A DNA stretch of 43,160 nt from Acidimicrobiales bacterium (lineage in GTDB: Bacteria > Actinomycetota > Acidimicrobiia > Acidimicrobiales > VFJN01): contig DASSUD010000440.1 in the NCBI GenBank assembly GCA_035707385.1, forward strand, positions 1 to 43,160, written 5' to 3'. Position 1 is the first letter of the stretch; every line of letters begins with the position of its first letter. Shown here in pieces: positions 11,811 through 43,091 of the stretch. A program made the translations under genes and the position numbers. The notes under the pieces were generated by a model. It saw only the letters and a program-made list of their open reading frames with translations, made no database searches and was not told the DNA's origin.

Positions 11811-11884
11811 GGGCGCGTAGCTCAGTTGGCTAGAGCGCTGCCCTTACAAGGCAGATGTCGGGGGTTCGACTCCCTCCGCGCCCA
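11811..11884 (+). tRNA. tRNA-Val (anticodon TAC)
   Basis: It folds by eye into a cloverleaf: acceptor GGGCGCG/CGCGCCC, D stem GCTC/GAGC, anticodon stem CTGCC/GGCAG with loop CTTACAA, T stem GGGGG/CCCTC with loop TTCGACT, discriminator A. No encoded CCA. Confidence 0.9.
11843..11884 (+). repeat. copy 1 of the 42-nt repeat (tRNA-Val 3' half, attL-like core)
   Basis: cttacaaggcagatgtcgggggttcgactccctccgcgccca recurs at 42924-42965 (42/42). From tacaagg onward it recurs at 31596-31637 with 2 mismatches. Confidence 0.85.
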
Positions 11885-12249
11885 CCCTTTGACCAGGGAT
11901 TTTAGTCCCACCGGCTGGAAGGCTGCGATCACCAAGACCAACGGACTGGCGCATATGCCCACTCCGGACTGTTCTCGTGGCAGGCCACAAGCGGTTCCGT
12001 CGGGGCCTGGCACTGTCGGTCGAGGCGCCGAAGGACCCGATGGGTCGACACGAACTGCGAGCGCCCCGCCAGCCGCGAAGCCCTGCTCTCCGCCTCCGAT
12101 GACGACATCGCGCTGCTCCGGGTGACGCCGCACGTCGACGAGGGTCGTTGATTTCGCGCTTGAGAAGGCCGAGGTCATCCGGTGGGTCGGTCTCCTCTCG
12201 TGCGCAAGCAAGACGGACGAGGGTCGGCGGCGTGCCGGGAGGCTGGCCG

Positions 12250-16839: not shown

Positions 16840-16840
16840 G

Positions 16841-17479: not shown

Positions 17480-17500
17480 GCGCGCGGTCGACGGGGCAGT

Positions 17501-24344: not shown

Positions 24345-24372
24345 CGTTCCGGATACTAGAGGATCATTCACT

Positions 24373-26954: not shown

Positions 26955-26964
26955 AGAGGACGGG

Positions 26965-27582
26965 TCAGGAAACGTCCGCCTGGAGCTCCTCCGCGACCCG
27001 TTCCCATTCCGCGGCGGTGCCGGCCGTGTGGACCGCTGCACCCGGGTCGGTCCGCAGTTCGCCGGTCGTGAGATCGACTCGCACCGCGGTCACGAGCAGG
27101 GCGGGCGCCCCGGTGGCCTGATCGCCACCCACCTCGGTCAGGATGGCCCAGCCCGACCCGACGTGCACTCTCAGCTCCGGCACGCGCGGGCCGAGCGATT
27201 CGGCGTGGACATCGGTCCACCCTGCACCCGCTGCCCGGGCTCGGCCGATCGCGGCCAGCCTCGCCAGCCGCCGCTCCTCTCCTGCCAGTTCGCGATCCCG
27301 TGCCGCGGCTGCGGATCCGAAGATGTCGTCCGGGTCGAGGCCCTGCGCACTCGTGCCCGTCGCATCGCACGCCTCCGCCACTTGCTCGACCGCCCGCGCT
27401 TGGCAGGCGAGGAGGTCAGCGGCCGTGGTGGTCACCTCCCGCAACTGCTCGCAGGTCGCGGCGACCAGCACCAGGGCCCGCTGGTAGCCGTCGACGTTGG
27501 TCATCGCCAGGGGGTACAGGCGTGCCTCGGCGGCCCGCCACGACTGGCGGGCGCGCACGACGGCATCGTCGCTCATCGACAC
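26965..27582 (-). CDS. hypothetical protein (205 aa), first gene of the radical SAM/GNAT operon
   Basis: High GC3, 10-nt gap to the radical SAM start, no motif recognised. An alternative ATG lies at 27576. Confidence 0.55.
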   Translation of the reverse strand: MSMSDDAVVRARQSWRAAEARLYPLAMTNVDGYQRALVLVAATCEQLREVTTTAADLLACQARAVEQVAEACDATGTSAQGLDPDDIFGSAAAARDRELAGEERRLARLAAIGRARAAGAGWTDVHAESLGPRVPELRVHVGSGWAILTEVGGDQATGAPALLVTAVRVDLTTGELRTDPGAAVHTAGTAAEWERVAEELQADVS

Positions 27583-27655
27583 CCTCGATTGACCATCCTG
27601 GAGGTGATGTCTACTATCCTCAACGTTCCGCTAAGCCAGCCAGCGAGGTGACGGG

Positions 27656-28621: not shown

Positions 28622-28632
28622 CCCCCGGCGCC

Positions 28633-30168
28633 ATGGTCGCTGGAGTGCGCGTCCTGCGCGACCGCTATGTCGACTCGGTCCAGTTGCTGGCGATCACGCG
28701 CCGGATGCGTCAGTCTGAGGGCGTCGACTTCGCCGCTGCGCTGATGGGGACGCCGGCCAACCTGGAGGCGCTCGAGGAGCAAGGGGTCGGCGGCGAGGCG
28801 CTGTCGGCGGGCCCCAACGACCTCGTGCTCGCGGCGCGGGCAGGGGATGCCGCGCAGGCGGACGGCGCGCTCGAAGAAGCCGAGCAGGCGCTGTCTCCCA
28901 CGCGTTCGGCCGCGATCGCACCGGCTGAGCGCTCGCCCCGGTCCCTGCAGGCCGTCCTCGACGGGCCCGACGATCCGAACGTCGCCATCGTGTCGGTGGC
29001 CGGCGAGTACGCCGCGCTCGAAGCGCACAAGGCGCTCTCCGCCGGGCTGCACGTCCTGCTGTTCAGCGACAACGTGAGCATGGACGAGGAGATCGCGCTG
29101 AAGGAGCACGCCGCGGCTGTCGGCCGGCTGGTGATGGGGCCCGGCGCCGGTACCGCCAGCCTCGGGGGTTGCGGCCTCGGCTTCGCCAACGCCGTCGTGC
29201 CCGGGCGCGTCGGCGTGGTTGCTGCCGCCGGTACCGGGGCGCAGGAGGTCATGGCCCTGCTGGACCGCTGGGGCGAGGGGGTGTCCCACGTGATCGGCGT
29301 GGGCGGCCGCGACCTGTCCCGGCAGGTTTCCGGGCGCAGCGCGCGGCTGGCGATGCAGGCTCTCGCCCGTGACCCGGGCACGGACGTGATCGTGCTGGTG
29401 TCCAAACCCCCGTCTCCCGACGTCGCACGCGAGGTCGTGGCCGCGGGCGGGGCGAAGCCGGTGATCGCGGCGCTGATCGGACTGGCGCCCGACACGCCGG
29501 TGCCGGGGGCTGCGGCGGTGGCGACCACCCTCGAGGGCGCCGCGGCTCACGCCGTGACGCAACGCGGGGGATCCCCACCCTCCGACTGGTCGGAATGGCG
29601 GTCGCACATCGCCATCAGCCTCGTCGACCTCGATCCGGCGCGCCGCACCGTGCGAGGGCTCTTCTCGGGCGGGACGCTGTGCTACGAGGCGCAGACGCTG
29701 CTGCAGCAACGGCTCGGGGACGTGTGGTCGAACGCGCCGCTGGACGAGCGCCGCCAGGTGCCCGCGCCCGCGGGCGCCCACCTGTGCCTCGACCTCGGTG
29801 AGGAGGAGTACACGAAGGGACGGCCCCATCCGATGATCGACGCCGAGGCTCGCCTCGGGGTGCTGGCCGAGGCGGGCGACGATGACGAGGTGGCGGTGGT
29901 GCTGCTGGACGTGGTGCTGGGCTACGGGGGGCACGACGACCCGGCGTCGGTGCTCGCGCCCGCGTGCGCGGCCGTGGCACGGCCCGAGGGCCCCCGAGTC
30001 GTGGTCTACGTCCTCGGCACCGACGGGGATCCGCAAGGCCTGGCGCCTCAGCGCCGGGCGTTCGAAGAGGCCGGCTGCCTCGTGGCGCCCACGGCCGCCC
30101 GGGCTGCGCTCGGGGCCGCCGCGATCGCGGGGCGCCAGCCCCAGATCGTCGTGGCGGACCTGTCGTGA
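28633..30168 (+). CDS. FdrA family protein (succinyl-CoA-synthetase-alpha-like)
   Basis: 511 aa. N-terminal RDRYVDSVQLLAITRRM...AALMGTPANLEAL and CoA-ligase-like GPGAGTA.. / AAAGTGAQEV segments. Confidence 0.75.
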   Translation: MVAGVRVLRDRYVDSVQLLAITRRMRQSEGVDFAAALMGTPANLEALEEQGVGGEALSAGPNDLVLAARAGDAAQADGALEEAEQALSPTRSAAIAPAERSPRSLQAVLDGPDDPNVAIVSVAGEYAALEAHKALSAGLHVLLFSDNVSMDEEIALKEHAAAVGRLVMGPGAGTASLGGCGLGFANAVVPGRVGVVAAAGTGAQEVMALLDRWGEGVSHVIGVGGRDLSRQVSGRSARLAMQALARDPGTDVIVLVSKPPSPDVAREVVAAGGAKPVIAALIGLAPDTPVPGAAAVATTLEGAAAHAVTQRGGSPPSDWSEWRSHIAISLVDLDPARRTVRGLFSGGTLCYEAQTLLQQRLGDVWSNAPLDERRQVPAPAGAHLCLDLGEEEYTKGRPHPMIDAEARLGVLAEAGDDDEVAVVLLDVVLGYGGHDDPASVLAPACAAVARPEGPRVVVYVLGTDGDPQGLAPQRRAFEEAGCLVAPTAARAALGAAAIAGRQPQIVVADLS

Positions 30169-31319
30169 GACCGGTCGGGCTGGTCACGTACTCCACCAAG
30201 CCGCGCGGCGGGGTGGTGCACCTGCTGGCGCTGGCCGAGGCGCTGGCGAGGCGCTCGTTCCCTGTCGAGGTCATCGCCCTCGGCGATGAGAAGGTCGGGT
30301 TCTATCGCCCAGTCGCGGTGCCGTGCTCCTTCGTCGCCGCCCCTGAGCCGGCCCCCGAGCTCGAGGCGAGGGTGTTCGCTGCGATCGATGCGCTGGCGGC
30401 GGGGCTGGGGGCGCGAGCGGGAGCGCTGCCCCCGGTGCTGCACGTGCAGGACTGCATCGCCGCCCGGGCCGCCCTCCGCGTGCGCGATGCGGGCGCGCCT
30501 TTACGCGTCGTGCGCACGGTGCACCACGTCGACGACTTCACCACGCCCGCGCTGGTCGACTGCCAACGCAGGTCGATCCTCGATCCCGATCGCGTGCTGG
30601 TCGTCAGCCGGACCTGGCAGAAGCGGCTCGCCGACGAGTACGGCGTCAAGGCCGACGTGGTGACGAACGGCGTCGACGTCGATCGCTTCGCCGCGGCCCC
30701 GCCCCCGGGGGTCGCCGCTGCCCTGCGCGCCCGCGCCGGCGCGGAGGGGCGGTTCCTCATCCTGACGGTGGGCGGCATCGAGCCCCGCAAGGGCACCGAC
30801 CAGCTGTTCCGGGCGCTGTCGCGCCTGCGCCGGCGCTGGGCTCGTCCGCCGGTGCTCGCCATCATCGGCGGCCACTCGTTTCAGGACCACACCCCCTACC
30901 GCGAAGGTGTCATCGCCTCGATGGCGGACCTCGACCTCGAGTTCGGCCGGGATGTGGTGCTCGTGGGCACGGTGCCCGACGACGAGATCGCGGCCTGGTA
31001 CCACGCCGCCGACGCCTTCGCGTTCCCGTCCGTCACTGAGGGCTTCGGTCTCGTCGTGCTGGAGGCGATGGCCTCCGGCCTTCCGGTCGTGCTCACCCGC
31101 CTGCCGGTGTTCGCCGAGTACGTACGCTTCGGCGAGGACGCGCTCGCCGTGGCTCCGGGCGACGACGAGGGGCTCGCCGACGCGTTGGACGCCGTCGCCC
31201 GCGACGGCGACCTGCAGGCGACGCTGCGCCGGAGGGGGCGCGCCCTGGCGGCGAGGTTCAGTTGGGACGCTACGGCACAGCAGCACATCGCCATCTACGA
31301 CGACCTGCACACGAGCTGA
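30165..31319 (+). CDS. GT4 glycosyltransferase, MSMEG_0565-like
   Basis: 384 aa. YSTKPRGGVVHLLALAEAL near the N-terminus and the EGFGLVVLEAMASGLPVV GT-B (GT4) motif. The GTG start overlaps the FdrA stop (GTGA). Confidence 0.8.
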   Translation: MRPVGLVTYSTKPRGGVVHLLALAEALARRSFPVEVIALGDEKVGFYRPVAVPCSFVAAPEPAPELEARVFAAIDALAAGLGARAGALPPVLHVQDCIAARAALRVRDAGAPLRVVRTVHHVDDFTTPALVDCQRRSILDPDRVLVVSRTWQKRLADEYGVKADVVTNGVDVDRFAAAPPPGVAAALRARAGAEGRFLILTVGGIEPRKGTDQLFRALSRLRRRWARPPVLAIIGGHSFQDHTPYREGVIASMADLDLEFGRDVVLVGTVPDDEIAAWYHAADAFAFPSVTEGFGLVVLEAMASGLPVVLTRLPVFAEYVRFGEDALAVAPGDDEGLADALDAVARDGDLQATLRRRGRALAARFSWDATAQQHIAIYDDLHTS

Positions 31320-31499
31320 CCGGTGCCGCGAGGGGGAGACGACGTCTCGGGGCCTCGACCCCGCAGACCGACGGCCGCCGCTGGTGGATCATGGGCCCAC
31401 TTTCGCCACAGATCAGCGCGTTGGCCGAACAAGATGTGCGCGGTGCGCCGAGATCGCGCGTGGATGGAGACGCGCGGGCACCGGTCCTGCGAACGCCTC

Positions 31500-31539
31500 G
31501 CCAACCATGATCCGGCCACATGGAGATCAATGCGTGCCA
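31500..31539 (+). repeat. island-end conserved block, copy A
   Basis: gccaaccatgatccggccacatggagatcaatgcgtgcca aligns with 42842-42882 at 33 of 41 columns (one 1-nt gap). Both copies lie 44-57 nt upstream of a tRNA-half repeat. Confidence 0.5.
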
Positions 31540-31595
31540 GGAGGGACCTGCTGCGGCGCCTAGGCCGTGGTAGACGACCCCCCAGCGTGCCGCTC

Positions 31596-31637
31596 TACAA
31601 GGCAGATGTCGGGGGTTCGAGTCCCGCCGCGCCCACC
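31596..31637 (+). repeat. copy 2 of the tRNA-Val 3'-half repeat (diverged, attR-like junction between islands)
   Basis: tacaaggcagatgtcgggggttcgaGtcccGccgcgcccacc: 40/42 identical to 11845-11886. The two changes fall in the T-loop and T-stem, so it is not a functional tRNA. Confidence 0.8.
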
Positions 31638-31883
31638 GAGTGCCTGCAGTCATCTGCGGTGATGCGTCGTCGGCCCGCCAACCCGAAACCACGTGACAGG
31701 GCTTCGAGCCACGGCTGTCCCGTTGTTCGATCTGCCGCGCACCTTGCGTGCCGCGCCGAACAACATCGCTGAACACAGGCTGTTGTTCGTCGACCCGGGC
31801 TGCCTGGCGGGCCAGGGCTCGCCCGGCGTGGTCGGCCAACATGACCAGGCGCGGATCGGCAGTAGCGCCGTCGGCGTCGCCGG

Positions 31884-32045
31884 TCATGGCCTGCCCATAT
31901 GGAGCACGAAGTCGATCAGCTCGTCGAGGTGCTCGGCGACAGTCAACGGGTCGGTCGTCACCTTCACCCGCCTCCACGCGTAGTGCTCGTCGAAGAATTC
32001 GCGCTGACTCGCCGGCGGGCCGTAGCGGACGTTCACGCTGAGCAC
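31884..32045 (-). CDS. small hypothetical ORF (about 50-53 aa)
   Basis: High GC3. Reads (VLS)VNVRYGPPASQREFFDEHYAWRRVKVTTDPLTVAEHLDELIDFVLHMGRP*. Its stop overlaps a following ATG (ATGA at 31884-31887). Below the ORF-track length cutoff. Confidence 0.25.
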   Translation of the reverse strand: MLSVNVRYGPPASQREFFDEHYAWRRVKVTTDPLTVAEHLDELIDFVLHMGRP

Positions 32046-32075
32046 TTGGGGTTCACCGCCCGTCGAGCGCTTCGC

Positions 32076-32315
32076 TCAGTGGCGCGCCATGGCCCGCACG
32101 TCGTCGAGGCGCGGGTCGAGCGCCTTTGGGTCACTGGGATCGAGGAGACAGATCGGTCCCGTCTCGTGCCGTTCGACCCTGCCCTCGAAACCGATGATCT
32201 GCTCTGGCTGCCCGGGACCGCCGCCTGTGATGCGGTCGAGGTTGCGGTCGATCGCCTGGCCGTACTCGTGGATGCGCGGGTGACGGTCCTCTCGATCGAA
32301 GATGACACTGAGCAT
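32076..32315 (-). pseudogene. gene fragment (79-aa ORF, probably the 3' part of a frameshifted gene)
   Basis: MLSVIFDREDRHPRIHEYGQAIDRNLDRITGGGPGQPEQIIGFEGRVERHETGPICLLDPSDPKALDPRLDDVRAMARH*. Protein-like sequence continues upstream in another frame (HMLADPTDHHGVHLNAGISTITDADA). Confidence 0.35.
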
Positions 32316-32499
32316 CGGCGTCGGTGATGGTCGAGATGCCGGCGTTGAGGTGCACACCGTGGTGGTCGGTGGGGTCGGCGAGCATGTGGCCGGGAGACGG
32401 CCTGCTTTGTCACCACGGTCTGTGGTTGAATGTCGGCGCGGCGGAAGTTGACGGTGGATCGAGCCCTTCGCCAGTAGCGCCAGTGGACGGGAGGCGCGC

Positions 32500-35400
32500 A
32501 TGACGCTTTGGGACCAGCTCCCGGCTCCCGCGCAGAACAACGGGGCGGCCGAAGGCGTGCGGCCGCTGCTCGAGGCGCTCGACGCCAACCACGACGGGGT
32601 CGCCACCGAGGATGACGGCAGCTGGGACCGGTGGTCCGCATCGGGGACTTGGCCGACCCCGGTCAGCTTCGACCCCGGTGCTGGCGGGTTCACGGCCAAC
32701 GCGGTCAACGCGTCCACGCCGCTCGAGTTCCCCGACCCGGCCGTCGGGGTCGAGGTGGGGCTGCACCTCGACGCCGGCGGTAACCCCGACGGCGGCTGGC
32801 GGGTCACGCTGGAGGTCCCGAAGGTCATCGTGCGCCTCCCGTTCCTGCGGGGCGCCGACCTCGACGCCCAAGGCCAGCTGCGGGCCAACGGGCAGACCGT
32901 CCGGTTCACCCTTCCCGCGCTCCGGATCCGGGCCAAGCAGCTCACCGGCCAGTCCGTCGGCGTCGAGCTGCTGTCGGCCACGATCACCAACCCACCGGTC
33001 GATCAGCTCTACGAGCTGATCCGCATGGAACCGCCGTACGCGCTGATCGGGCCCAGCGACGTGGTCGGCTTCGCCTTCCGCACCGCCGTGCTGGACCTCA
33101 CCGGCGAGGCCGGCCCCGACGGCGTGCCGCCCGGCGCCCGGGCGATGCCGACCGACTGGCAGGGCCTGTGGCTGCCCGAGGCACGCCTGTTCGTCGCCCC
33201 AACCGGCCTTGACGGCCTGGCCGTCAGCGCCGGCGTGCGCGACCTCTGGATCGGGTTCGGGATTCACGCCGGGGTCACTGGCATCTTCGAGGCCGAGGTC
33301 GTCAACCGCGGCGGCACCCCGACGCTCAATGCCAGCTTCCGTACGGCTACAGGCCGCTGGATCCCGGCGCCGGCGACGGGCGCCGTCCTCCTGCCCGCCC
33401 AGACGACGCTGTTCGTCGACGCCCACGGCGGCATCGCCCCGGTTACCGTATCGATCGACATCGGCGGGACGGTCACCACCGCCGACCGCGTCGACGTGGC
33501 GGTGCCAGCCGCGGGCGCGGTGACCATCACGATCACCGCCACCGACGGGGGCGGCCACGTGACGACGCGCACGTTCGACGTGAGCCGCGAAGCCGCCACC
33601 CCGCCGGGCGGCTCCCCGGGGGCCATGACCACGCTGGCGCCCACCAGCACGGGAGCCCACCAAATGGTGCTGGTCTCTCAGACCACGACCGAAGCGGTCC
33701 TCAGGTTGGAACCGGAGGTGGCCGCCAACTGGAGCTGGCCGGGCGGCTCGGCGCCGAGTGCCACCAGCGCCACCGTGCCGATCGCGGCGGCCGGGGACTT
33801 CACGGTGACCGCCACGATCACAGCCGTGGCGCCGACAGTGATCGACGCCTTCTTCGTCTTCGACAAGCCAGCGGGGTGGGCTGACGACCTGGCCCGCGAC
33901 CGGTGGGCCAGCACCGGCGACAACATGCACACGGGACCGGCCGGCTCGCGCACCCGGCCGGGAAACTCGTCCACACTGGCGTCGACGCTGCCGGGCCGGC
34001 TCGCCCAGCTCGGCGCGGGCACCGCGCTCACCGTGCGGGGGTACGCCTCGTTCGAGGGCTTCGACGACGACCCACACCGGCAGCACAACGAGGCGCTCAG
34101 CGTCCGCCGCCGCGACGCGCTCATCGCGCTCTTGCGGGCCAGCGGGTTCACAAGCCTCAACGCCGCGACGTCGACCGGCCACGCAATGGCCCGCGACGGC
34201 ACGTCGATCGACGGCACGACACCAGCGCCACCCCCCGGCGACGCCCGCTGGTGGCGGGCCCGCGCCATTACCGCGACAACCGGCCCGGAAACGATCACCG
34301 GGCGGTTGCGGCGCCCCGCGCCACCGGCCACCACTAACACGGATCCCGCGCCACCGGCCACCGGCCGCCCCGACTGCTTCCGCCAGCTCGGCGTGCGGGT
34401 GGAGCTCCTACGGAGCACCTTCATCCGCGCCGAGCTGTACGGCCAGTTCGACATCGAGACGGCAGCGGAGACAGCGCTGCGCCACCGCGGGCAGCCGCCG
34501 CTGCGACAGGGGCCCCGCAACCCGATGGAGGGCGTGTGCGACTTCCTGGTCCGCCTGCGGGTCGCTGCCGACCGCGAGTCGTGGCTGGTCAGCGCCGAGC
34601 TGCGGGCAGCCGAGGGCGACCTCGACGGTCTGGCGATGATGGACGAGAGCCGGGCCAACCCGACCGCGCTCGACGTCCTTGGCGCGCTCGCCATCCTGGC
34701 TCCGCTCAGCTCGGCCACCGCGGAGCTGAGCCCAGCGGCGGGCACGCTTGTGGCGCTCGGCTCGCTCACGCTCGGCGGGGCGGGCCTCATCGACACGAAG
34801 CAGCTGATCCTCCGCGGCGCCGAGGTCGTTGTCAGCCAAGGGATCATCGCCGCGGACGGCAGCTCCACCGTCGACGCCCGCGGCACACAGGTGAGCGTGC
34901 TGCTCGACATCGAAACCGCTTTCACCTTCGACCTCGGCATCGTGCGGGTAGACCCGGCGCATCCGGTGACCACCCGCTACAAGGCCATCGGCGTCCGGTC
35001 CTCCTGGAACACGGCACCCGGTCCGGGCGGTCAGGTGGACTACCTGCCGATACCGGTCTTCGACCCCAGCCGCGGCTACACCCTCGACATCCCCACCGGT
35101 GCGCTGTCGGCCAGCCCGCCGCTCGACGAGCTGCTGCGGATCCTCGGCTTCCGGGTCAGCCGCGATAACCCGACCTTCGTCGAGGTGGAGGTCGGCCTCG
35201 GCGTCGACCTCGGGATCGTCGACGTCGAGAGCGTACGCGTCCGCGCCCGGATCGACGGGCCGCCGTTCGACATCACGCTGACCAAGCTCGTGGCATCGCT
35301 CGAGGTGCCGGGCGTGCTCCATGGCCGCGGTTCGCTCGAGTTCACGCCGCTGGGGTTCAAAGGCGCGTTCGACCTCACGGTGGTGCCCCTCAATATTCGC

Positions 35401-38400
35401 GCCACCGCGGTGCTCGCCCTCGAATCGCGCGACGGCGTCACCGGCGTGCTCGTCGGAGTCGACGTCGAGTTCCCGGCGCCGCTGCCGCTCGGCAACTCCG
35501 GGCTCGGCATCTACGGGTTCCTCGGTGGTGTCGGCGCGAACTACGCGCGCAACGAGGCACCACACGCTGGCAGCCAGGTGCCGGCGCTCGACTGGCTGAC
35601 TGCGCAGCTGCCACGCGTCGGTGGCGTCATGGACCCGACCGGCTGGACGTTGACGCCGGGCTCGTACGCGTTCGCCGCCGGCCTGCTGCTCGGAACCGTC
35701 GACGGCGGCTTCGTCGTGCACCTCAAGGGCGTGGTGCTGATCGAGGTCCCCGGGCCGCGGCTGTTGCTGATCATGAAGGCCGACGTCTTGAAGATGCCGC
35801 CGGTACTCAAGAGCGCCAGCCAGAACGCGACGTTCCTCGCCGTCCTCGACATCGACTTCGGGCGGGGGACGATCACCCTCGGCGTCGTCGCCACCTACGA
35901 GATCCGCCGCCTGTTGAAGATCCGCGTCCCGGTCACGGCGTTCTTCGACACGCAGCACCCGGAGAACTGGCTGGTCGACCTCGGCACCTACAACGACCGG
36001 GTCACCGTCGAGGTGCTCGACGTGATCACCGGTACCGGGTACCTGATGGTGCACGGCAACGGGCTGAGCATCCCCGGCCTGCCGCCGGTGACCGGCGGGA
36101 TGGCCATCGGCGTCGGGTTCCACATCAGCTGCATCCTCATGGGCAGCCGCAGCGCGGGCCTCTACCTCGAGGTGGCTGCGGGCTTCGACGCCATACTCGG
36201 GTTCGACCCCTTCTACCTGGCCGGCAAGATCTACGCCCGCGGCGAGCTCCGGTTGTTCATCGTGAGCATCGGTGTCAGCGCCGAGCTGGAGGTGATCGTC
36301 GGCCGGGTCTCCCAGACGAGCCCGGACATCACCTACGTCCATGGCGAGGTGTGCGGGAAGGTCGACTTCTTCTTCTTCTCGGTCAAGGGGTGCGTGTCGC
36401 TGACGATCGGCTCGAAGCCGGCGGCCCCGGCGACCCCACCGCTACTGGTCGCGGGGGTCAGCCTGGTCAGCCGGTCCCCGGCCCTGCTGGAGGGGACGGC
36501 CACCGATCGGGCCGTGGACGGGAAGCTGGGCGACGCGCCGGAGGACGGTACTAGCGGCACCCGCCCGTCCGTGCCCCTCGACGCCGTGCCGGTCATCGCG
36601 TTCTCGTCCGCGCCCGTTCTGACCGGGACCGCGCTGGGCGGGACGCCGGTGGGCAGCTCCGGCGCCCCGGCCGGCGGTTGGGTCCGCCTCGGCGACCGGT
36701 GGTGGACCTACGAACTGGTCGACGTGACGCTCGTCGGCAGGCTGACGGCGGGGTCGACGCCCAGCGCGTGGTGGGCGGCGCCGAACACCGACCCCGCCAG
36801 GGCGCCGTCACTTGCCCTGCTCAGCTGGCTTCCGACGCCGTTCAGCCGCGCCGTCCCCTATGGCGAGGCGCTCACGGAGATCGTCACCGGAAGCTGGGGG
36901 ACGGTGTGCAGCGACCCGGCGCCGCCCGCCCCCGTGCTCTGGACCTTCGACTACCAACCCCTGGGGCCCAGCCCCGTCGGCTGGCTGCTGCACGGCGTGC
37001 CGTGGCCAGACCCCCCTGGCACGGTCCGTACCGCCCCCGTCGACGGCGACGCACTCGTAACCGAGCCGTGGCGCTGCGGCGATGCGGCCATCGACCTGCT
37101 GGCCGGCACCGCGCCGGCGGTGGTCGTCGGCGACTCGGTGCGCTGCGGCGAGAAGCCCGACCGCGGGCTGCTCACCGATCCGATCGCGGCGATCAAGGGC
37201 TTCGGAGGACTGCCCGGCGCCGGGTTGGCCCACGACCACGCCGCGTTCCTCGCGATCACCGAGGCCGTGGCCAGCGGGGTCTCGGCCAGCGACCTCGCCG
37301 CGGCGGAGCAGGCCCAGCGGTGGGACCCGCGCGCGGCGAGGGACGACCACAGCTGCGACGGGCGCATCCTGCGCTCACCCGAGCTGGAGTCGGGCGAGCC
37401 GGCGCCGCTCGGCACACCCGAAGACGCCGAGCGGGTGAAGCAGGCGTGGGACGAGCTGGGCCATGTGCCCCACCGCCTTCGCGACGCCGTCCGCCTCACG
37501 GCCGAGGGCGGGCTCAACGGGTTCGGGTTGCTGCTGCTCGTCCCCGAGGAGCTGTTCGTCGAGCGCCTCATCGTGCTCTACGAGGACGCCGCCGGCGGCG
37601 GCGTTCACTCGCGTCCGCTGAGCTTCGACGACCGGGTGTCGCCGGCCAACCCGCTGCCCGGCGAGTGGCTGGACGCGGACGGGCCGTGGGCAGATCCGGT
37701 ACTGCGGGCCCTCCAGGTCGCCGCCCGGGTCGCAAGCGACTCCTGGCTGCAGCAGGCGTACGTCTTCATCCGCGACGAGGACCTGCCCGACGAGGTCACG
37801 TCCGTGGTCATCGGCTGGGGCGGCGACCACTTCCGGCGGGAGGTCGCACCGGCGTTTCACGTCGTGGCCGCCACCGGCGAGCTGGCCAGCGAGCGCTGGC
37901 GGTCTTCCTGGGACGACGAGGTTGTTAGCAGCAACCAGAGCGCGCTCAGCACGGTGCTGAGCCAGGACCCGGATGACCACGCGCTGTTCACGACGGGCAC
38001 GCAGTACGCGGTCGAGGTCACCTGGCGAGCGGCTTCGCTCCAGTCCGACACCCGCCCCGGTGCGGGCGTGACACCGAGCTTCGGGGCGAACAGGACGCAG
38101 CGCTTTCGTTTCACCGCCGACGGCTCCGACCAGGCGCCCAAGGACCTCGCTCCCTGGCTCCTGGCCACAGCACCCGGGCAGGGTGAGACGGGGGTGTTCC
38201 GCGCGGAGCCGATCCGGGTCGCGCTCGCGACGCAGAACGTCGCCGCCCTGTTCGATGCCTACGGCGAGGAGCTGCTCGTCGTCGTGCACTCCGCATCGGG
38301 CAAGCACCCGGCGCCGCCGGGGGGTTCGCCCGGCTCGGCGTTCACCATCCCGCTCGCTGTCGACGGCGTCCACCTCAAGGGTCTCATCGCCCTCACGGTG

Positions 38401-39183
38401 ATGACGCCCTGGGAGGAAGCGGTTCGCGAGGTGGCGGGCACGCTGGGATGCATCGACGGGTCGGGCACCTACACGCACCACCAGGTGCTCGAGCTGCCGT
38501 ATGACTTCGAACCGCTCACCGACTACCTGCTGGACATCCACGCCGTGTCCAGCGGCGGCTCGGCCACACACCAGAACCTGGTCCATCGCGTGCCGTTCAC
38601 GACAGGCCGATTCTTCGACGAGGGCCAGTTGGCCGAGCTGGTCCGTACGGCCGCCTGGGAGCACACGGTGGTCACGAACCCGGCGGCCCTGGCGGCGCTA
38701 GCCGAGCGGCCGACCGGTGACCAGCTCGACGCGGCGTTCCAGGCCGCGGGCCTTCGAGCCCCGCTGGCGCCGAGCCTGCCGCTGGTGCAGGTGCTGTGGA
38801 ACGCCGACGCCGTACCGCAACCCGTGGCGGTAGTGGTGGAGGGCGCCGAGCCTCTGTGGCGCAGCCGTGACCTCCCGGTCGTGGTGCCCGGCCCCGCGGA
38901 TGCCTCGGACCCGACCCACCGCTGGTGGGCGACCCGGCCGCAGGAGTGGCTGGCCCTGCGGGCGAGCAGCGCGGGTGGCACGTTGCCGGCGGCCGCGGTG
39001 ACGCGGATCGTGCGGGGGCCTGGGGCGACGCGAGCGGTCGTGGTGCTGGGTCCCAGCAGCCGCGGCGCCGAGCTGCGGCTGGACCTGGTGCGGGCCGCCG
39101 ACCCGTTGGCGGGCACGGCGGCATCGGCGGTGGCGGCGCTGAGGCTCCCGTTGCGGGCGGCGCCCTGGGAGTTCGAGGAGTAG
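32500..39183 (+). CDS. giant hypothetical protein (2227 aa) with a degenerate OmpA-like segment
   Basis: Uninterrupted 6.7-kb ORF with uniformly high GC3, and RBS GGGAGG 6 nt upstream of the ATG. I saw no signal peptide, Walker A, or nuclease/peptidase motif. OmpA_C-like LTVRGYASFEG...HNEALSVRRRDALIALL lies at about aa 505-545. Confidence 0.85.
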   Translation: MTLWDQLPAPAQNNGAAEGVRPLLEALDANHDGVATEDDGSWDRWSASGTWPTPVSFDPGAGGFTANAVNASTPLEFPDPAVGVEVGLHLDAGGNPDGGWRVTLEVPKVIVRLPFLRGADLDAQGQLRANGQTVRFTLPALRIRAKQLTGQSVGVELLSATITNPPVDQLYELIRMEPPYALIGPSDVVGFAFRTAVLDLTGEAGPDGVPPGARAMPTDWQGLWLPEARLFVAPTGLDGLAVSAGVRDLWIGFGIHAGVTGIFEAEVVNRGGTPTLNASFRTATGRWIPAPATGAVLLPAQTTLFVDAHGGIAPVTVSIDIGGTVTTADRVDVAVPAAGAVTITITATDGGGHVTTRTFDVSREAATPPGGSPGAMTTLAPTSTGAHQMVLVSQTTTEAVLRLEPEVAANWSWPGGSAPSATSATVPIAAAGDFTVTATITAVAPTVIDAFFVFDKPAGWADDLARDRWASTGDNMHTGPAGSRTRPGNSSTLASTLPGRLAQLGAGTALTVRGYASFEGFDDDPHRQHNEALSVRRRDALIALLRASGFTSLNAATSTGHAMARDGTSIDGTTPAPPPGDARWWRARAITATTGPETITGRLRRPAPPATTNTDPAPPATGRPDCFRQLGVRVELLRSTFIRAELYGQFDIETAAETALRHRGQPPLRQGPRNPMEGVCDFLVRLRVAADRESWLVSAELRAAEGDLDGLAMMDESRANPTALDVLGALAILAPLSSATAELSPAAGTLVALGSLTLGGAGLIDTKQLILRGAEVVVSQGIIAADGSSTVDARGTQVSVLLDIETAFTFDLGIVRVDPAHPVTTRYKAIGVRSSWNTAPGPGGQVDYLPIPVFDPSRGYTLDIPTGALSASPPLDELLRILGFRVSRDNPTFVEVEVGLGVDLGIVDVESVRVRARIDGPPFDITLTKLVASLEVPGVLHGRGSLEFTPLGFKGAFDLTVVPLNIRATAVLALESRDGVTGVLVGVDVEFPAPLPLGNSGLGIYGFLGGVGANYARNEAPHAGSQVPALDWLTAQLPRVGGVMDPTGWTLTPGSYAFAAGLLLGTVDGGFVVHLKGVVLIEVPGPRLLLIMKADVLKMPPVLKSASQNATFLAVLDIDFGRGTITLGVVATYEIRRLLKIRVPVTAFFDTQHPENWLVDLGTYNDRVTVEVLDVITGTGYLMVHGNGLSIPGLPPVTGGMAIGVGFHISCILMGSRSAGLYLEVAAGFDAILGFDPFYLAGKIYARGELRLFIVSIGVSAELEVIVGRVSQTSPDITYVHGEVCGKVDFFFFSVKGCVSLTIGSKPAAPATPPLLVAGVSLVSRSPALLEGTATDRAVDGKLGDAPEDGTSGTRPSVPLDAVPVIAFSSAPVLTGTALGGTPVGSSGAPAGGWVRLGDRWWTYELVDVTLVGRLTAGSTPSAWWAAPNTDPARAPSLALLSWLPTPFSRAVPYGEALTEIVTGSWGTVCSDPAPPAPVLWTFDYQPLGPSPVGWLLHGVPWPDPPGTVRTAPVDGDALVTEPWRCGDAAIDLLAGTAPAVVVGDSVRCGEKPDRGLLTDPIAAIKGFGGLPGAGLAHDHAAFLAITEAVASGVSASDLAAAEQAQRWDPRAARDDHSCDGRILRSPELESGEPAPLGTPEDAERVKQAWDELGHVPHRLRDAVRLTAEGGLNGFGLLLLVPEELFVERLIVLYEDAAGGGVHSRPLSFDDRVSPANPLPGEWLDADGPWADPVLRALQVAARVASDSWLQQAYVFIRDEDLPDEVTSVVIGWGGDHFRREVAPAFHVVAATGELASERWRSSWDDEVVSSNQSALSTVLSQDPDDHALFTTGTQYAVEVTWRAASLQSDTRPGAGVTPSFGANRTQRFRFTADGSDQAPKDLAPWLLATAPGQGETGVFRAEPIRVALATQNVAALFDAYGEELLVVVHSASGKHPAPPGGSPGSAFTIPLAVDGVHLKGLIALTVMTPWEEAVREVAGTLGCIDGSGTYTHHQVLELPYDFEPLTDYLLDIHAVSSGGSATHQNLVHRVPFTTGRFFDEGQLAELVRTAAWEHTVVTNPAALAALAERPTGDQLDAAFQAAGLRAPLAPSLPLVQVLWNADAVPQPVAVVVEGAEPLWRSRDLPVVVPGPADASDPTHRWWATRPQEWLALRASSAGGTLPAAAVTRIVRGPGATRAVVVLGPSSRGAELRLDLVRAADPLAGTAASAVAALRLPLRAAPWEFEE

Positions 39184-39185
39184 CC

Positions 39186-42100
39186 GTGGCGAGGACAGCG
39201 GACTCCTGGCGGTTCCGGGCCCGGGCGGAGCGGCTCTCTTGGACGACCAAGGCGCGCGAGCAGCTGGCCCTCATCACCGCCGTCGGCGCGGACGCTGGCT
39301 TCTGGGCAGAGCACCTCAAGCGACTCAGCGGGCGCTTCGATGAGGACATTCGGTTGATGTGGACGTGTTCGCCCGAGCTGGGTGTGCCGCGCGGGCCGTT
39401 CACGGTGTGGTCGCGCAAGCCGAGCGATGCGCTCGAGGAGGTCGACGTCACCATCCTCGGTGGTGCTTCGCCCGTGCTGTGGTGGGGCGGGGTTGAGGCG
39501 GCGTGCGTCGAGGTCACGTGTGAGCCCTTGAGCGGCAACCGCCCCGTCGGGCTGCTGCTGTTCCGCAACGGTGGCGAGCCGCGCCACGTCGTGTCAGCCG
39601 GCGCGGTCGACCCCGGCGGCGCCAACGTGGTGACGATCCGCGTCCGCACGCCTGGCGCGACCTTCGCCCGCCTCGTCGACGGCTTCAACCCGAGCGTGCT
39701 GATCGACCCACTCAGGACGGTGGTGAACGACGACAGTTGGCAGCCGATCGAGGTCGTCGGCCTTCCGGTGGATCAGCCATGGAACGGCACGATCTACGAC
39801 AGCTCGCCGCAGGGCCTCGTCGGGGCCGAGGTCGCCCCGCACGACGCGGCCGTCGACCGCCTGCGGCGGGGCGGCCCGCGAGTGGGCTGGTGGCCTATCA
39901 CCGAAACGGCCCGGACTGCGCCGTGGTGGGAGGCCCCTGACTCGGGCCGCCTCGTGAAGGAGGTCCGTGACCAGCTGTTGTCCGAGATCCTGCCCCTGTA
40001 CGACGGCGTCGCCGGGGAGCAGGAGCAGGCAGCACTGACGGACCTGCGAACGGTCGACGGCCCGAGCCAGGGCGGCAATACCTCGACGCTGGCCACGACG
40101 GCCGACGTCGGCCCCTGGGCCAAGCTCGTCCTCCCCGCGCTGAGCGACCCGTTCCTCAACCTGGCCTGCGGCTTCGGTACCGCGTACCCCGTGGAGGGAA
40201 GGGACACGCCGCCGGTAGCGGGTCATGACTTCCTCGTGACCGCGACGTACTCGCAGGTGCCGTTCCCGATGGACAGCGAGGAGGTGGCGGCCTACGCGCC
40301 GGCGGCCGCATTGCACCTCGCGGTGCCGGATCCCGCCGGCCTGGCGGCCGAGCGCCGGGGGCTGGTCGCCCCGCCAGTGCCGGACGCCACATGGCGGGAG
40401 TCGATCCGCCTCCGTTGGCAGCGGGTTGAGCCCACGGCGAGCATGCCGCCGATCACCGAGGCCGCCCTCGCGATCTACGAAACGTGGGGTGGCGGCGACG
40501 CGTCGTCGCTGTTGCCCGAGCGAGACGCGGGCGGCCCCCGGCCCTTCCTCATCGGAGCCGAAGCGCCCGAGGGCCAGCCGGGAAACGACCGGATCGCGCT
40601 CGTTCACGGTGAGGCCGAGATCCCCAACGGCAGCGGCGGGAGAGACGTCGGCTACGCGGTCGCGGTCAGCGACGTATTCGGCATCTGGTCCCGCTGGCAG
40701 GACGTGCGGTGGCGCGGGGACGAGCCGCTCCCGCTACCGCCCCGCATCGTGGCCGTCTCGCTGTCGACGACCTACGCCGGCTCGACGGCCTGCCCGGCCA
40801 CACTCGCAACCGAGATCGCGGTGGAGTGGCAGGAGCGCACGCCGACCTACGTCGATGTCGTCGCCCTCTTCTTCCCGATGGCCACGGCGACGACGGCGCC
40901 GCCCGCGGGCCTCTCGCCCGACCTGTCGCTCCCGGCCGGCTGCTTCCGGCGCGACCTCGCGCTGGGCTTCGTCGGCGACTCGCCGATCCCGTCGGGCTGC
41001 ACAGTGACTCCGCTGAACCCGGCTGGGGACGCGGCGATGGCGCCGGGGCCGGGCCAGGGCAACGGCGGCCGGCGCTACCGGCTGCGCGCCAACGTACCGA
41101 CGCTGGACTACGCCAGCGTCGGCCGTTGGGGCGTCCAGCTGTTCACACGGCGGGAGCTCGTCGTCGGGCCGACGCTCACGGCGTGGGGACCGCCGGCCAC
41201 CCACCCTGCGCTGGCCTCGGCGGCCAGCCCGGTCCCGGTCCTGCCCCTGCCGCCCCCGGCGCCGCCGGGCGTCCCCCTCGGGAGCACGCTCGACGCCGAC
41301 GGGCGCTCACACGTCCGCGTGCACTGGTCGCTGCCCTCGGGCGACGTGCGGACCTGCATCGTGTGGGAGGCGTCGGAGACCGCGCTGCGCCAACGGGTGG
41401 GGCTGCCCCCGCGGGCGCCGGACACAGACCCGCCCGGGGTGCGGCTGGCCGAGCTATGGAACCGCTACGACGCCATGACCCCAACCGCCCGGCGGGCCAC
41501 GTTCCGACGGCTGGCCGAACTGCCGAGGACGGCACGGCAGCACGACGTCGCCCTCCCCAAGGGATCGACCGACATCCACCTCTTCGTAGTCACGACGATG
41601 ACCGGCTCCGGTGTGGAGTCGCCCTGGCCGGGCGGCGCGACACCGCACGAGCACCTGCAGGCGGTCATCGCACCCCGCCTGCTGCAACCCGGCCCACCAA
41701 CCGTCGCGCCCGACTTCGATGAGGCGGGAACGGTCACGATCCAGTTGCGCAGCACCGGCGCCATCCCGGTCGACCGCGTCCGCCTCTACCGCACGCGCTC
41801 CGAGGGGGCGGCCCGCAAGGTGGAGACGATGGGACCAGCCTTCGCCGACGTCGGCGCCGTGGTGGTCTCCGGCCTCACGGATCCGGTCCTGCGCACGCCC
41901 GTGTACGAAGCGGTCTGGACGGGCCTCGTCCCCGGGCACTGGGACCCGTGGCTCATCCGGGCCGTCGCCGTCCCGCCGCACACGCTGCCCGTGCAGGGCG
42001 TGCGGGGGCTCCCATCGCCGGCCAGTGACGTCGTGTCGCTGCTCGTTCCGCCTGCGCATCCACCGACCCTGGAGCCGCTGCTGGCGGAGGTGTGGGGCGC

Positions 42101-42770
42101 GGACCACCGAGGCGTGCTGGTCCACACGGCGACGACGGCGCCGCCCCGCACGTCTGCGGTGGGCACGCACACGCTGTCCGCCAACGCAGGCGCGCAGGTC
42201 CTGGCACCGGTCGGGATCGAGGCATTGGACGAAACGGCGCTCACCAGCCCGCCCGCGGCGGCGTCGGGGTCGGTGGTGCTGGAGCGGGGGGTGCGGTCGA
42301 ACGGCCGGTCTCCGTTAGCGCTCTGGTTCACGCGCCTCGTCGCCGGCGACGCGGTTACCGTCGCCATCCGCATCGCCGACCCGTTCGGGCGTGTGTCCGA
42401 GCACACGATCACGGTGCCCGGTTGGGTGCCGCCCCCGCCGGTGAACATCCGAATCACCGACGTGTTCGCCGTCGCCGGCCGGGGCGTCGGCATGACGTTC
42501 GAGACGGACGCCTCGGACGAGATGGTGCTGGAGGTCAACGCCGCGCAGCGCTTGGCGCAACCCTTCCCGCCGCCCCGCCGCCTGTCCGTGCGGGGCCTCG
42601 TCGGCGACGTCCCGAACCGCCCGCCGCTTTTCCCCGGCCGCCCGGGCATCCAGGTCGCCCGGTCAGGTGGCGAGTACTCGGCCTTCGTCCCGCTCACCTC
42701 ACCGGTCGCGATCGAGGTCGCCATCGAAGCCCCCGACGGCTCCCGCGTCACCGACACCGCCTCGGGCTGA
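39186..42770 (+). CDS. giant hypothetical protein (1194 aa), tightly coupled to the 2227-aa gene
   Basis: The GTG lies 2 nt after the upstream TAG. Continuous high-GC3 ORF. Several beta-sandwich-like segments (HVRVHWSLPSGDVRTCIVWEASE; GTVTIQLRSTGAIPVDRVRLYRTRSEG). No catalytic motif recognised. Confidence 0.8.
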   Translation: MARTADSWRFRARAERLSWTTKAREQLALITAVGADAGFWAEHLKRLSGRFDEDIRLMWTCSPELGVPRGPFTVWSRKPSDALEEVDVTILGGASPVLWWGGVEAACVEVTCEPLSGNRPVGLLLFRNGGEPRHVVSAGAVDPGGANVVTIRVRTPGATFARLVDGFNPSVLIDPLRTVVNDDSWQPIEVVGLPVDQPWNGTIYDSSPQGLVGAEVAPHDAAVDRLRRGGPRVGWWPITETARTAPWWEAPDSGRLVKEVRDQLLSEILPLYDGVAGEQEQAALTDLRTVDGPSQGGNTSTLATTADVGPWAKLVLPALSDPFLNLACGFGTAYPVEGRDTPPVAGHDFLVTATYSQVPFPMDSEEVAAYAPAAALHLAVPDPAGLAAERRGLVAPPVPDATWRESIRLRWQRVEPTASMPPITEAALAIYETWGGGDASSLLPERDAGGPRPFLIGAEAPEGQPGNDRIALVHGEAEIPNGSGGRDVGYAVAVSDVFGIWSRWQDVRWRGDEPLPLPPRIVAVSLSTTYAGSTACPATLATEIAVEWQERTPTYVDVVALFFPMATATTAPPAGLSPDLSLPAGCFRRDLALGFVGDSPIPSGCTVTPLNPAGDAAMAPGPGQGNGGRRYRLRANVPTLDYASVGRWGVQLFTRRELVVGPTLTAWGPPATHPALASAASPVPVLPLPPPAPPGVPLGSTLDADGRSHVRVHWSLPSGDVRTCIVWEASETALRQRVGLPPRAPDTDPPGVRLAELWNRYDAMTPTARRATFRRLAELPRTARQHDVALPKGSTDIHLFVVTTMTGSGVESPWPGGATPHEHLQAVIAPRLLQPGPPTVAPDFDEAGTVTIQLRSTGAIPVDRVRLYRTRSEGAARKVETMGPAFADVGAVVVSGLTDPVLRTPVYEAVWTGLVPGHWDPWLIRAVAVPPHTLPVQGVRGLPSPASDVVSLLVPPAHPPTLEPLLAEVWGADHRGVLVHTATTAPPRTSAVGTHTLSANAGAQVLAPVGIEALDETALTSPPAAASGSVVLERGVRSNGRSPLALWFTRLVAGDAVTVAIRIADPFGRVSEHTITVPGWVPPPPVNIRITDVFAVAGRGVGMTFETDASDEMVLEVNAAQRLAQPFPPPRRLSVRGLVGDVPNRPPLFPGRPGIQVARSGGEYSAFVPLTSPVAIEVAIEAPDGSRVTDTASG

Positions 42771-42841
42771 GCCCTGATCGATCGGTGCCCCAGCGCCCTG
42801 GCGCTCGACGAGCACCCGTGACCCTGACATGCCAACATCCT

Positions 42842-42882
42842 GCCAACGGTGATCCGGTCAACATGGGCATCAGGGCGTGCCA
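42842..42882 (+). repeat. island-end conserved block, copy B
   Basis: gccaacggtgatccggtcaacatgggcatcagggcgtgcca; see 31500-31539. It is surrounded by further GYCAAC (42831, 42857, 42913) and GGTGATC (42848, 42893) reiterations. Confidence 0.5.
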
Positions 42883-42923
42883 CGTGGCGCGCGGTGATCG
42901 ACAAATGCCGTGGTCAACCGCCA

Positions 42924-42965
42924 CTTACAAGGCAGATGTCGGGGGTTCGACTCCCTCCGCGCCCA
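42924..42965 (+). repeat. copy 3 of the tRNA-Val 3'-half repeat (exact, distal att-like site)
   Basis: 42/42 identity to 11843-11884. It starts in the anticodon loop and ends at the discriminator base. The upstream sequence is unrelated to the tRNA 5' half. Confidence 0.85.
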
Positions 42966-43091
42966 ACCAGGTCAGAGGCGCCTTCGGGCCGGAAGCTTCA
43001 ACCCCAGAGCCGAATTAGGCAGCACGCAGGCCTTTCGGCTCGACTCGGGGCCATTGACCTCTAGGCGACTTGAGGTTCTAGTTTGCGCGTC

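Follow-up and report, generated by a model that had tools for sequence, protein, structure and literature searches.

What kind of system is encoded by two giant genes that stand back to back in the genome of an Acidimicrobiales bacterium and match no characterised protein family? The pair was studied in a complete contig of 43,160 nt from a metagenome-assembled genome (DASSUD010000440.1, assembly GCA_035707385.1), the whole of which is called the window here. It comprises two open reading frames (ORFs) on the forward strand, identified from the ORF list and its translations: ORF A at 32500..39183, which starts with ATG and encodes a giant multidomain protein of 2227 amino acids (aa) with a DUF6603 domain, and ORF B at 39186..42770, which starts with GTG and encodes 1194 aa. 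There is good support for an operon family that is self-contained and spreads horizontally, with A and B as its invariant core, usually joined by a variable third gene. The two proteins most likely form one stoichiometric, non-enzymatic structural complex. We infer, with a probability of roughly 0.4, that this complex acts outside the cytoplasm at a cell envelope after non-classical release, with the third gene providing an exchangeable accessory.

Both ORFs are real genes under purifying selection and not chance ORFs. The ratio of nonsynonymous to synonymous substitution rates was 0.16 for A and 0.18-0.21 for B over their full lengths, with zero frame breaks, when compared with the relatives at loci L129 (86-88% identity) and L130 (79-83%). 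More than 120 full-length homologues of A were found at 43-95% identity and lengths of ~2230-2290 aa, and 75 homologues of B at identities down to 27%. Searching 1.84 billion cluster representatives with phmmer returned 904 clusters of A-core relatives at E<=1e-3 (counted at 50% identity clustering) and 255 at E<=1e-30. The stop codon of A and the start codon of B are separated by a 2-nt spacer (TAG cc GTG, 39181..39188, forward strand), an arrangement of translational coupling, and the gap in homologous loci is likewise a few nucleotides or an overlap. The two ORFs occupy 91% of the 11.3-kb segment at 31641-42925, and their GC content at third codon positions (GC3) reaches 0.92 and 0.89, respectively, a strong coding signal in a window of 68-80% GC. 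These values agree with an initial annotation of this DNA, which had described two ORFs 2 nt apart, filling more than 90% of an 11.3-kb island with a uniform high-GC3 signal.

The start positions of both genes are well defined. An upstream extension of ORF A is impossible, and no hidden signal peptide can exist there, because the stop-to-stop frame opens at 32452 and its first start codon is that at 32500. The longest frame of ORF B begins at 38925, and the GTG at 39186 is backed by the N-termini of homologues as well as by the deposited NCBI protein P0121 (100% identity).

Searches of A and B against Pfam, NCBIfam, PADLOC, and PHROGs yielded only DUF6603 and a weak PKD match, both in A. Three A and B alignments, run as profiles against PDB sequences, hit OmpA-like and Ig-like domains with A and nothing with B. 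No catalytic or NTPase motif or domain was found in either protein with Pfam, NCBIfam, and a motif scan, and nuclease and sensor domains were likewise absent. The scan of the translations recovered no Walker A (GK[ST]), HExxH, lipobox, LPXTG, YD..G, or twin-arginine motif, and no hydrophobic stretch in A or B was strong enough for a clear transmembrane helix. The motif absences reported in the initial annotation all hold on the motif and hydropathy scans. It had also seen no likeness to nonribosomal peptide or polyketide synthases, RHS proteins, or known toxin families, and no profile match to any of these was obtained. Neither protein could be assigned to a characterised family, and both ORFs are conserved and under purifying selection.

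A and B are strictly paired across the family. A scan of one genome per species recovered 77 loci, nearly all in Actinomycetota, with a few metagenome-assembled genomes labelled as other phyla. B directly follows A in all ~110 loci with downstream DNA, so that the co-occurrence of the two genes, which the initial annotation had proposed to check, holds in every locus long enough to show it; the gap among the 77 scanned loci is 0-90 nt. The pairing spans Actinomycetota, Paenibacillus, Massilia, Rhizobium tropici, Paracoccus, Haloferax, and metagenomes of 36-74% GC. Distant versions occur in Paenibacillus montanisoli, in Massilia/Telluria, and in 44 metagenomic loci. On the megaplasmid of Rhizobium tropici CIAT 899, A, B, and a third protein, C, have 2480, 1225, and 1087 aa, respectively, while plasmid pAMI4 of Paracoccus aminophilus carries A and B and no C. 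The plasmid pHME322 of Haloferax mediterranei encodes an A-like protein of 1858 aa (hhalign probability 100, E = 1e-55) and a B-like protein of 1370 aa (probability 97, E = 8e-11); the N-terminal domain, the core, and the C-terminal region of A are kept in this archaeal homologue.

Copies of A that are ~50-56% identical were observed in metagenome-assembled genomes labelled Brevundimonas, Alphaproteobacteria, Polyangiaceae, Chloroflexia, Granulosicoccus, and Polaromonas (L029, L042, L046, L027, L059, and L080, respectively), and these are either recent cross-phylum transfers or binning contamination. A profile search toward canonical DUF6603 proteins of other architecture returned only fragments of the same family, and literature searches with DUF6603, PF20248, protein accessions, and descriptive terms retrieved no paper on it. 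The two proteins are uncharacterised, as first described, but they are not orphans: A matches DUF6603, and the pair belongs to a large family of several bacterial phyla and one archaeon that more often consists of three genes.

The third gene, C, is present in most non-actinobacterial loci and encodes 1030-1120 aa (for example at L004 13593-16958, L005 13826-16990, L007 11300-14404, and L133 22734-25997). In the actinobacterial clade, to which the window belongs, no third gene occurs within 10 kb. The C-terminal ~250 aa of C align with plant and human phospholipase D at both signature motifs (E = 0.07-0.5). C was rejected as a canonical phospholipase D because it departs from the motif HxK(x)4D(x)6G(S/T)xN: in C, Arg or a variable residue stands in place of His, Thr in place of Lys, and His in place of Asn. 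The motif in C reads R/x-x-T...D...G(S/T)xH, with an invariant FHPxGFPGR just upstream, and the protein would be either a pseudo-enzyme or one with a re-tooled active site. In Haloferax, the third position is taken by a different gene, encoding a Baseplate_J protein of 1142 aa (PF04865, E = 2e-12, with baseplate triplex and wedge proteins as weak matches in the PDB) that is not homologous to the bacterial gene C. The closest plasmid relatives of this protein belong to ordinary tail clusters or share one domain only.

Protein A consists of several regions of unequal conservation. Its N-terminal domain (aa 1-300; 32500..33399, forward strand as for all features of A), delimited by conservation and homologue alignment, is conserved and carries no signal peptide. 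W4 and D5 are invariant among close A homologues, and the domain is kept in the Haloferax protein (profile positions 13-257). In the conservation profile, aa 150-250 and the DUF6603 core are the best-conserved parts of A, while the most variable stretches are an Ig-like region and the hypervariable aa 1551-1600. The former is an Ig/PKD-like beta-sandwich region recognised by profile matches at aa ~300-470 (33397..33909). Pfam PKD matches weakly at aa 405-440 (E = 0.085), with one distant member reaching significance (2e-8), and a search of the PDB with the family profile hit Ig-like phage decoration proteins at aa ~320-400 (E = 2e-3).

This region is followed by a fold like that of the OmpA C-terminal domain (aa ~498-615; 33991..34344), detected with the family profile against the PDB and carrying an altered ligand motif, GYAS.EG...N..LS.RR. 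With the diverse family profile, the best match was RmpM (1r1m, E = 3.9e-6), followed by Pal, OprF, and YfiB (to 1e-3), and a profile of closer homologues gave E = 0.01. Pfam OmpA matched one distant member (2.3e-6) and left A of the window unmatched. In the alignment with RmpM, GHTD becomes GYAS.EG, by which the canonical Asp is lost and a conserved Glu stands two residues later, while N..LS.RR is kept; N530, L533, S534, and R537 of A are invariant. Judged from these sequence features, binding of peptidoglycan or the cell wall by the degenerate OmpA-like domain is plausible. A Pro/Thr-rich linker was read from the translation at aa 604-625 (RRPAPPATTNTDPAPPATGRPD; 34309..34374), and the part of it that begins the modelled fragment has a predicted local distance difference test score (pLDDT) below 50.

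The AlphaFold2 run for A covered aa 615-1814 and reached a pLDDT of 73 and a predicted template modelling score (pTM) of 0.39. Along the chain, a pre-core of lower confidence is followed by a confident run of strands, then by a stretch of poor prediction, and finally by an alpha/beta domain predicted with confidence at aa ~1618-1814. The pre-core contains an Ala/Gly/Leu-rich, weakly hydrophobic helical pair (aa 721-764; 34660..34791), seen in both hydropathy and model: Kyte-Doolittle means over 19 residues are 1.62 at aa 723-741 and at 746-764, and the helices are predicted with low confidence at fragment residues 107-146. The DUF6603 core (aa ~881-1305; 35140..36414) was identified with Pfam, AlphaFold2, and Foldseek. 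PF20248 matched aa 882-1123 with 36.9 bits against a cut-off of 27 (E = 2.2e-9), a partial coverage that extends over profile positions 13-256 of 502. The core was modelled at fragment residues 280-690 (aa ~894-1304) with a pLDDT of mostly 78-90, as a barrel-like meander of ~24 long antiparallel beta-strands, each of 10-17 residues. Foldseek searches of the PDB placed FimD/PapC ushers, ApoB100, LptD, Deinococcus SlpA, TonB-dependent receptors, and VDAC at the top, with E of 9e-5 to 5e-2 and template modelling (TM) scores of 0.13-0.30; against viral models, only porin-like noise was returned. As modelled, the core is a very large barrel-like beta-meander that loosely resembles outer-membrane barrels of 22-30 strands.

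The presence of ApoB100 and LptD among these top matches, together with the resemblance of the C-terminal domain of C to phospholipase D at both signature motifs, raises the possibility of a complex for binding and transfer of lipids or other hydrophobic ligands. The amphipathic sheet of A would then hold lipid as do ApoB100, LptD, and bridge-like transporters, and the third protein with its phospholipase D fold would recognise it. The ApoB100 matches, however, have probabilities of 0.28-0.44 (0.85 for one short fragment), and full-length entries have TM scores <=0.1. Moreover, the catalytic His and Lys of phospholipase D are not conserved in C, C is dispensable in many lineages, and no membrane anchor is present. 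A function in lipid transfer appears quite unlikely on this balance.

The C-terminal region of A (aa 1306-2227, ~900 aa; 36415..39180), described from the AlphaFold2 fragment, the conservation, and the cysteines, is partly of low confidence and had no Pfam or PDB sequence match. A subclass of the A family is only ~1750 aa long, with a core that begins at about residue 245 and ~450 N-terminal residues missing (e.g., P0269, P0290, P0300, and P0312).

Protein B was predicted as a chain of ~10 Ig/FN3/macroglobulin-like beta-sandwich domains, almost entirely of beta structure (AlphaFold2 pLDDT 88.7, pTM 0.60), with two short helices near the N-terminus and a few helical inserts. Foldseek matched complement C5, C3, and C4, Escherichia coli alpha-2-macroglobulin, CD109, mastigonemes, cytokine receptors, and an archaeal S-layer protein in the PDB, with E down to 1e-13 and global TM scores of only 0.08-0.15. 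In the model, the likeness is one of repeated Ig/FN3/macroglobulin domains and not of overall architecture. Sequence-based searches with Pfam, NCBIfam, PADLOC, PHROGs, and PDB sequence profiles left B unmatched. Profile and structure searches confirmed what had first been read from the letters, namely an OmpA-like segment, a Pro/Thr-rich linker, and a beta-rich core in A and Ig/FN3-like domains in B; the quoted tryptophan-containing strands are present in B at aa 72, 407, and 709. In Pedococcus dokdonensis (L001 16773-20584), B occurs as two adjoining genes of 640 and 630 aa that jointly span all of it; the gene is either truly split there or interrupted by a frameshift or sequencing error.

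Further indications of the site of action came from the cysteines of A. Family cysteine statistics revealed a covarying pair, C1285 and C1298, which lie 13 residues apart in the hairpin GEVCGKVDFFFFSVKGCV (36352..36393). Among ~306-312 non-identical family members, both were present in 298, neither in 8-14, and a single one in 0. C1549 and C1619 mostly covary as well (both in 233, neither in 14, one in 17), and C1470 and C1984 are universal in the A family. Several of the ~1750-aa proteins of the family also lack the C1285/C1298 pair. The paired pattern is what disulfides would give.

The main proposal, that the A-B complex acts outside the cytoplasm, builds on the OmpA-type fold, the variable Ig/PKD region, and these covarying cysteine pairs. 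The position of the Ig-like region as the most variable part of A is as expected for an exposed binding module. The Haloferax homologue lacks the Ig/OmpA segment and the C1285/C1298 pair, and its archaeal host has no peptidoglycan. Among the options of the initial annotation, an envelope-associated machine is therefore the one favoured here, although by inference from the OmpA-like fold, its absence in the archaeon, and the paired cysteines.

In the mechanism that we propose, polymers of the wall or surface would be the ligands of the OmpA-like and Ig-like domains. Disulfides would stabilise the conserved beta-core, and this core would be the working platform of the complex, as a pore or conduit or as a large binding shell. 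B would provide an extended rigid arm of ~10 Ig-like sandwiches. Release of A and B would be non-classical, by lysis or in vesicles as for the signal-less Tc-type toxin complexes, rather than by Sec export; this part of the proposal is drawn from the fact that no signal peptide was seen and no export gene travels with the module. The variable third gene may supply an exchangeable accessory or payload, which the actinobacterial clade would do without. The target envelope could be that of the producer, with a role as scaffold or adhesin, or that of a neighbour, with binding or pore-forming antagonism.

Several observations weigh against this proposal. A and B of the window have no Sec/Tat signal, transmembrane helix, lipobox, or sortase motif, and the inspected N-termini of homologues are likewise without them. 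No secretion, export, or lysis gene is linked to the module, and because export signals are missing too, a cytoplasmic location is the default reading. No immunity gene is present, which speaks against an antibacterial-toxin version in particular. Peptidoglycan binding is not assured, since the OmpA-like motif is without its canonical Asp (GHTD to GYAS). Structure searches match the core only weakly (TM 0.13-0.30, with a model pTM of 0.39), and the covariation of the cysteines could alternatively reflect a metal site.

A purely intracellular scaffold or compartment pair, with an OmpA-like fold put to another use and metal bound at the cysteine pairs, would account for the lack of any export signal in the window proteins and inspected homologues as well as for the degenerate ligand motif. 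It is harder to reconcile with the absence of the OmpA-like segment from the one archaeal homologue, with a hairpin cysteine pair that is atypical for metal, and with the overwhelmingly extracytoplasmic location of Ig/PKD arrays in general. An intracellular role is thus held to be unlikely.

A more specific alternative is a multi-subunit toxin released by lysis in the manner of Tc complexes. A would bind the wall and insert a pore or translocator formed by the beta-core and the helical pair, B would bridge, and the phospholipase D-like C would be the payload, so that the actinobacterial two-gene form would be a pore or binder without payload. Three giant signal-less subunits of ~2300-2480, 1200-1270, and 1030-1120 aa in fixed order fit this picture, as do the mobile and patchy distribution with a variable third slot and the weakly hydrophobic helical pair that precedes the core. 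TcA, TcB, and TcC are close in size to A, B, and C. Genes for PAAR and Tle1-like proteins adjoin the module in Massilia, but this adjacency is confined to that group and was rejected as a link to the module. On the other side, Pfam detected no Tc, RHS, SpvB, or VRP1 domain, and none was among the top 50 Foldseek matches shown. C is conserved to its C-terminus and not polymorphic, its HKD catalytic residues are replaced, and it is absent from the whole actinobacterial clade and from Paracoccus, while immunity and lysis cassettes are missing. A Tc-like toxin is accordingly regarded as doubtful.

Envelope action after non-classical release, the reading preferred here, can be extended to a bolder statement that we consider speculative and would not expect to hold in full. 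The A-B module, with or without its third gene, might represent an unrecognised class of extracellular device that is independent of signal peptides and common to monoderm and diderm bacteria and haloarchaea. The main body of such a device would be a giant beta-barrel or shell made from a single chain and held by disulfides, and it would carry host-specific wall-binding modules and a rigid Ig arm. The device would need no dedicated secretion system to leave the cell and would act on cell envelopes by pore formation, adhesion, or delivery of the exchangeable third subunit. If the preferred reading is correct, a large operon family of several bacterial phyla and one archaeon would be without experimental description. 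Its architecture is hard to square with known cell biology, as a wall-binding fold and a barrel-like core of outer-membrane size are combined with no signal peptide and no partner genes, in hosts that mostly have no outer membrane. The family could reveal a new exit route for very large proteins or a new envelope-acting complex. Genetically tractable carriers are Rhizobium tropici CIAT 899, Pseudarthrobacter species, and Haloferax mediterranei. If A and B were instead a cytoplasmic scaffold, they would still be a new giant protein family, of narrower interest.

The genomic surroundings of the module were compared across related loci. Clustering of flanking ORFs (85 and then 47 loci) found nothing conserved besides A, B, and C. 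The three closest relatives (at least 79% identity) lie in three different contexts, which argues that the module moves as a self-sufficient unit; one of them, L130, stands beside an integrase and transposases, and the integrase adjoins A. Pooled neighbours were transporters, regulators, and metabolic or housekeeping genes. Among 150 immediate neighbours from 61 non-redundant loci, Pfam and PADLOC showed no enrichment of phage, injection-system, type VI secretion, or defence genes. A GT4 'conflict-system' glycosyltransferase, which stands just before the module in the window and two genes ahead of it in Paenibacillus, was considered as a partner and rejected: it lies outside the repeats of the window and is not conserved elsewhere.

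An anti-phage defence or surface-exclusion module on a genomic island had been one of the initial suggestions. The island-borne, patchy, and recently mobile distribution, the giant components of unassigned function, and an AbiEi gene near the Jiangella copy would be in line with it. However, PADLOC returned nothing for A and B, and the 150 neighbours include only isolated defence-like genes (one DrmC-like, one AbiEi, and one viperin-like) without the signature of a defence island. The absence of nuclease, NTPase, and sensor domains points in the same direction, and the defence context was not borne out; a role of this type is highly improbable.

The other context suggested at first, that of phage tails, fared no better. 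Under such an explanation, A and B would descend from baseplate wedge proteins and would form either a tail-like particle, degenerate or novel, or a complex for receptor binding. Its single contextual hint is the Baseplate_J gene that follows the A-like and B-like genes on Haloferax pHME322, to which may be added an insert of ~95 aa in Paenibacillus gene C that is common to tail-fibre PHROGs and the resemblance of the Ig-like domains of A to phage decoration proteins. Yet the loci examined, the Haloferax plasmid among them, showed no gene for a sheath, tube, spike, or other baseplate component near the module, and ~125 loci showed no conserved contractile-injection or prophage genes beside it. 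PHROGs gave no match for A or B, and no relative was present in 2.9 million IMG/VR viral contigs (within the limits of a pattern search) or in 50,697 phage records. The structural comparison with viral models gave noise, and the Baseplate_J protein is unrelated to bacterial C. An origin from a tail or baseplate is very unlikely. The Haloferax locus (L132 9757-22870) has no other tail genes nearby, and a halocin H4 gene is located ~10 kb downstream, probably by coincidence.

In the window, the A-B segment is bounded by repeats derived from the 3' end of a tRNA gene, as in a tRNA-targeted genomic island. An intact tRNA-Val(TAC) gene at 11811..11886 on the forward strand was found with ARAGORN, Rfam, and the repeat search. 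It is the source of the 3'-half copies and anchors two tandem segments. The left boundary of the A-B segment is a 3'-half copy at 31596..31640 (forward strand; direct repeat D2), which matches 11845-11886 of the gene, and the right boundary, from the repeat search, is a second copy at 42926..42970 (forward strand), beginning 155 nt past B. The 3' halves at 11845-11886, 31596-31637, and 42926-42967 are 42-45 nt long and differ by 0-3 mismatches, in agreement with the island at tRNA-Val that had been proposed. The contig thus carries tRNA-Val and then two tandem inserted segments, at 11887-31640 and 31641-42970, each closed by a regenerated tRNA end, and this order is the signature, as read from the sequence, of two successive integrations at one tRNA. 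No integrase-like ORF was found within 31641-42925, and a tblastn search with the L130 integrase found none anywhere in the window.

Similarity also extends to the flanks, as ~170 nt on the 5' side of both downstream tRNA-half copies are weakly similar (31400-31595 vs 42790-42925), for example in GTGATCCGG..ACATGG..ATCA..GCGTGCCA..GCCGTGGT, and may be remnants of the attachment flanks of the integrating elements. Rfam identified only the tRNA-Val gene when applied to the island ends, and nothing in the similar flanks. Two small reverse-strand ORFs, at 31884-32045 and 32076-32320, lie between the left repeat and ORF A. Both start with MLSV and have no Pfam match, and they may be pieces of one decayed gene.

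Metabolic genes are densely packed in the first of the two segments (11887-31640). Their products are nitrile hydratase alpha and beta, OsmC, a DsrE-like protein, a pyridine-nucleotide disulfide oxidoreductase, an AllG-like protein, two fumarate-lyase-family enzymes, a PLP enzyme, ComA (phosphosulfolactate synthase), an AIR-synthase-like protein, a GNAT protein, a radical SAM enzyme, an amino-acid kinase, a CoA ligase, and the GT4 glycosyltransferase. This segment may be a pathway island for sulfonates or other small molecules.

Adjacency to a tRNA is rare among 62 related loci. In Microbacterium, the module ends 60-100 nt (L044 and L050) or ~2 kb (L022) before a tRNA-Ser(CGA) gene, located at 20596-20686 in L044, 20664-20754 in L050, and 22388-22478 in L022, and an integrase homologue occurs just past this gene in L022 and L044.

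Compared with known systems, the family is catalogued as DUF6603 and uncharacterised, and as a system it corresponds to no known kind. Membership in contractile injection systems or phage tails was rejected, as no set of sheath, tube, spike, and baseplate genes accompanies the module and the Haloferax Baseplate_J gene is a lone exception at a single locus. Known anti-phage systems in PADLOC were dismissed likewise, with A and B unmatched and their neighbours unenriched. Chaperone-usher systems share only a fold likeness to FimD (E = 9e-5, TM 0.15-0.23), and no usher Pfam match, signal peptide, or conserved chaperone neighbour was found. B resembles multi-Ig and macroglobulin proteins in its chain of ~10 beta-sandwiches, with C5, C3, ECAM, CD109, and an S-layer protein as the best matches. 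The alpha-2-macroglobulin/complement thioester family was nevertheless rejected for B, which has no Pfam match, no helical thioester or toroid block in its model, and global TM scores of 0.08-0.12.

The Tc toxin complexes are similar in comprising three giant signal-less proteins of similar sizes and fixed order in a mobile, self-contained module. They differ in their TcA, TcB, and TcC domains, RHS repeats, and beta-propeller, none of which is present in A, B, or C, and the third protein here is non-polymorphic and often absent. The ~24 long antiparallel strands of A recall outer-membrane barrels such as FimD/PapC, LptD, Deinococcus SlpA, and TonB-dependent receptors. In proteins of the SlpA/OmpM type, a giant barrel is preceded by a linker and a wall-binding domain, and the barrel-like core of A is likewise preceded by a linker and a fold of the wall-binding type. 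In contrast, no sequence similarity connects A with these barrels, even the Massilia homologue is without a signal peptide, and most of the hosts, being monoderms or, in one case, an archaeon, lack an outer membrane.

Closer relationships exist at two points. OmpA, Pal, and RmpM are matched by the family profile and share the conserved N..LS.RR of A. Their domain forms the periplasmic end of a membrane protein or lipoprotein, whereas that of A is internal to a protein of 2227 aa that has no signal peptide and comes from a monoderm. A scores above the cut-off of DUF6603 (PF20248) and many of its homologues are annotated as 'DUF6603 domain-containing protein', while the match covers half the profile, 6 of 20 distant members reach E = 1e-3, and the name carries no function. 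The memberships that hold for A are thus two, the uninformative DUF6603 and, at the level of the fold, the OmpA-like domain.

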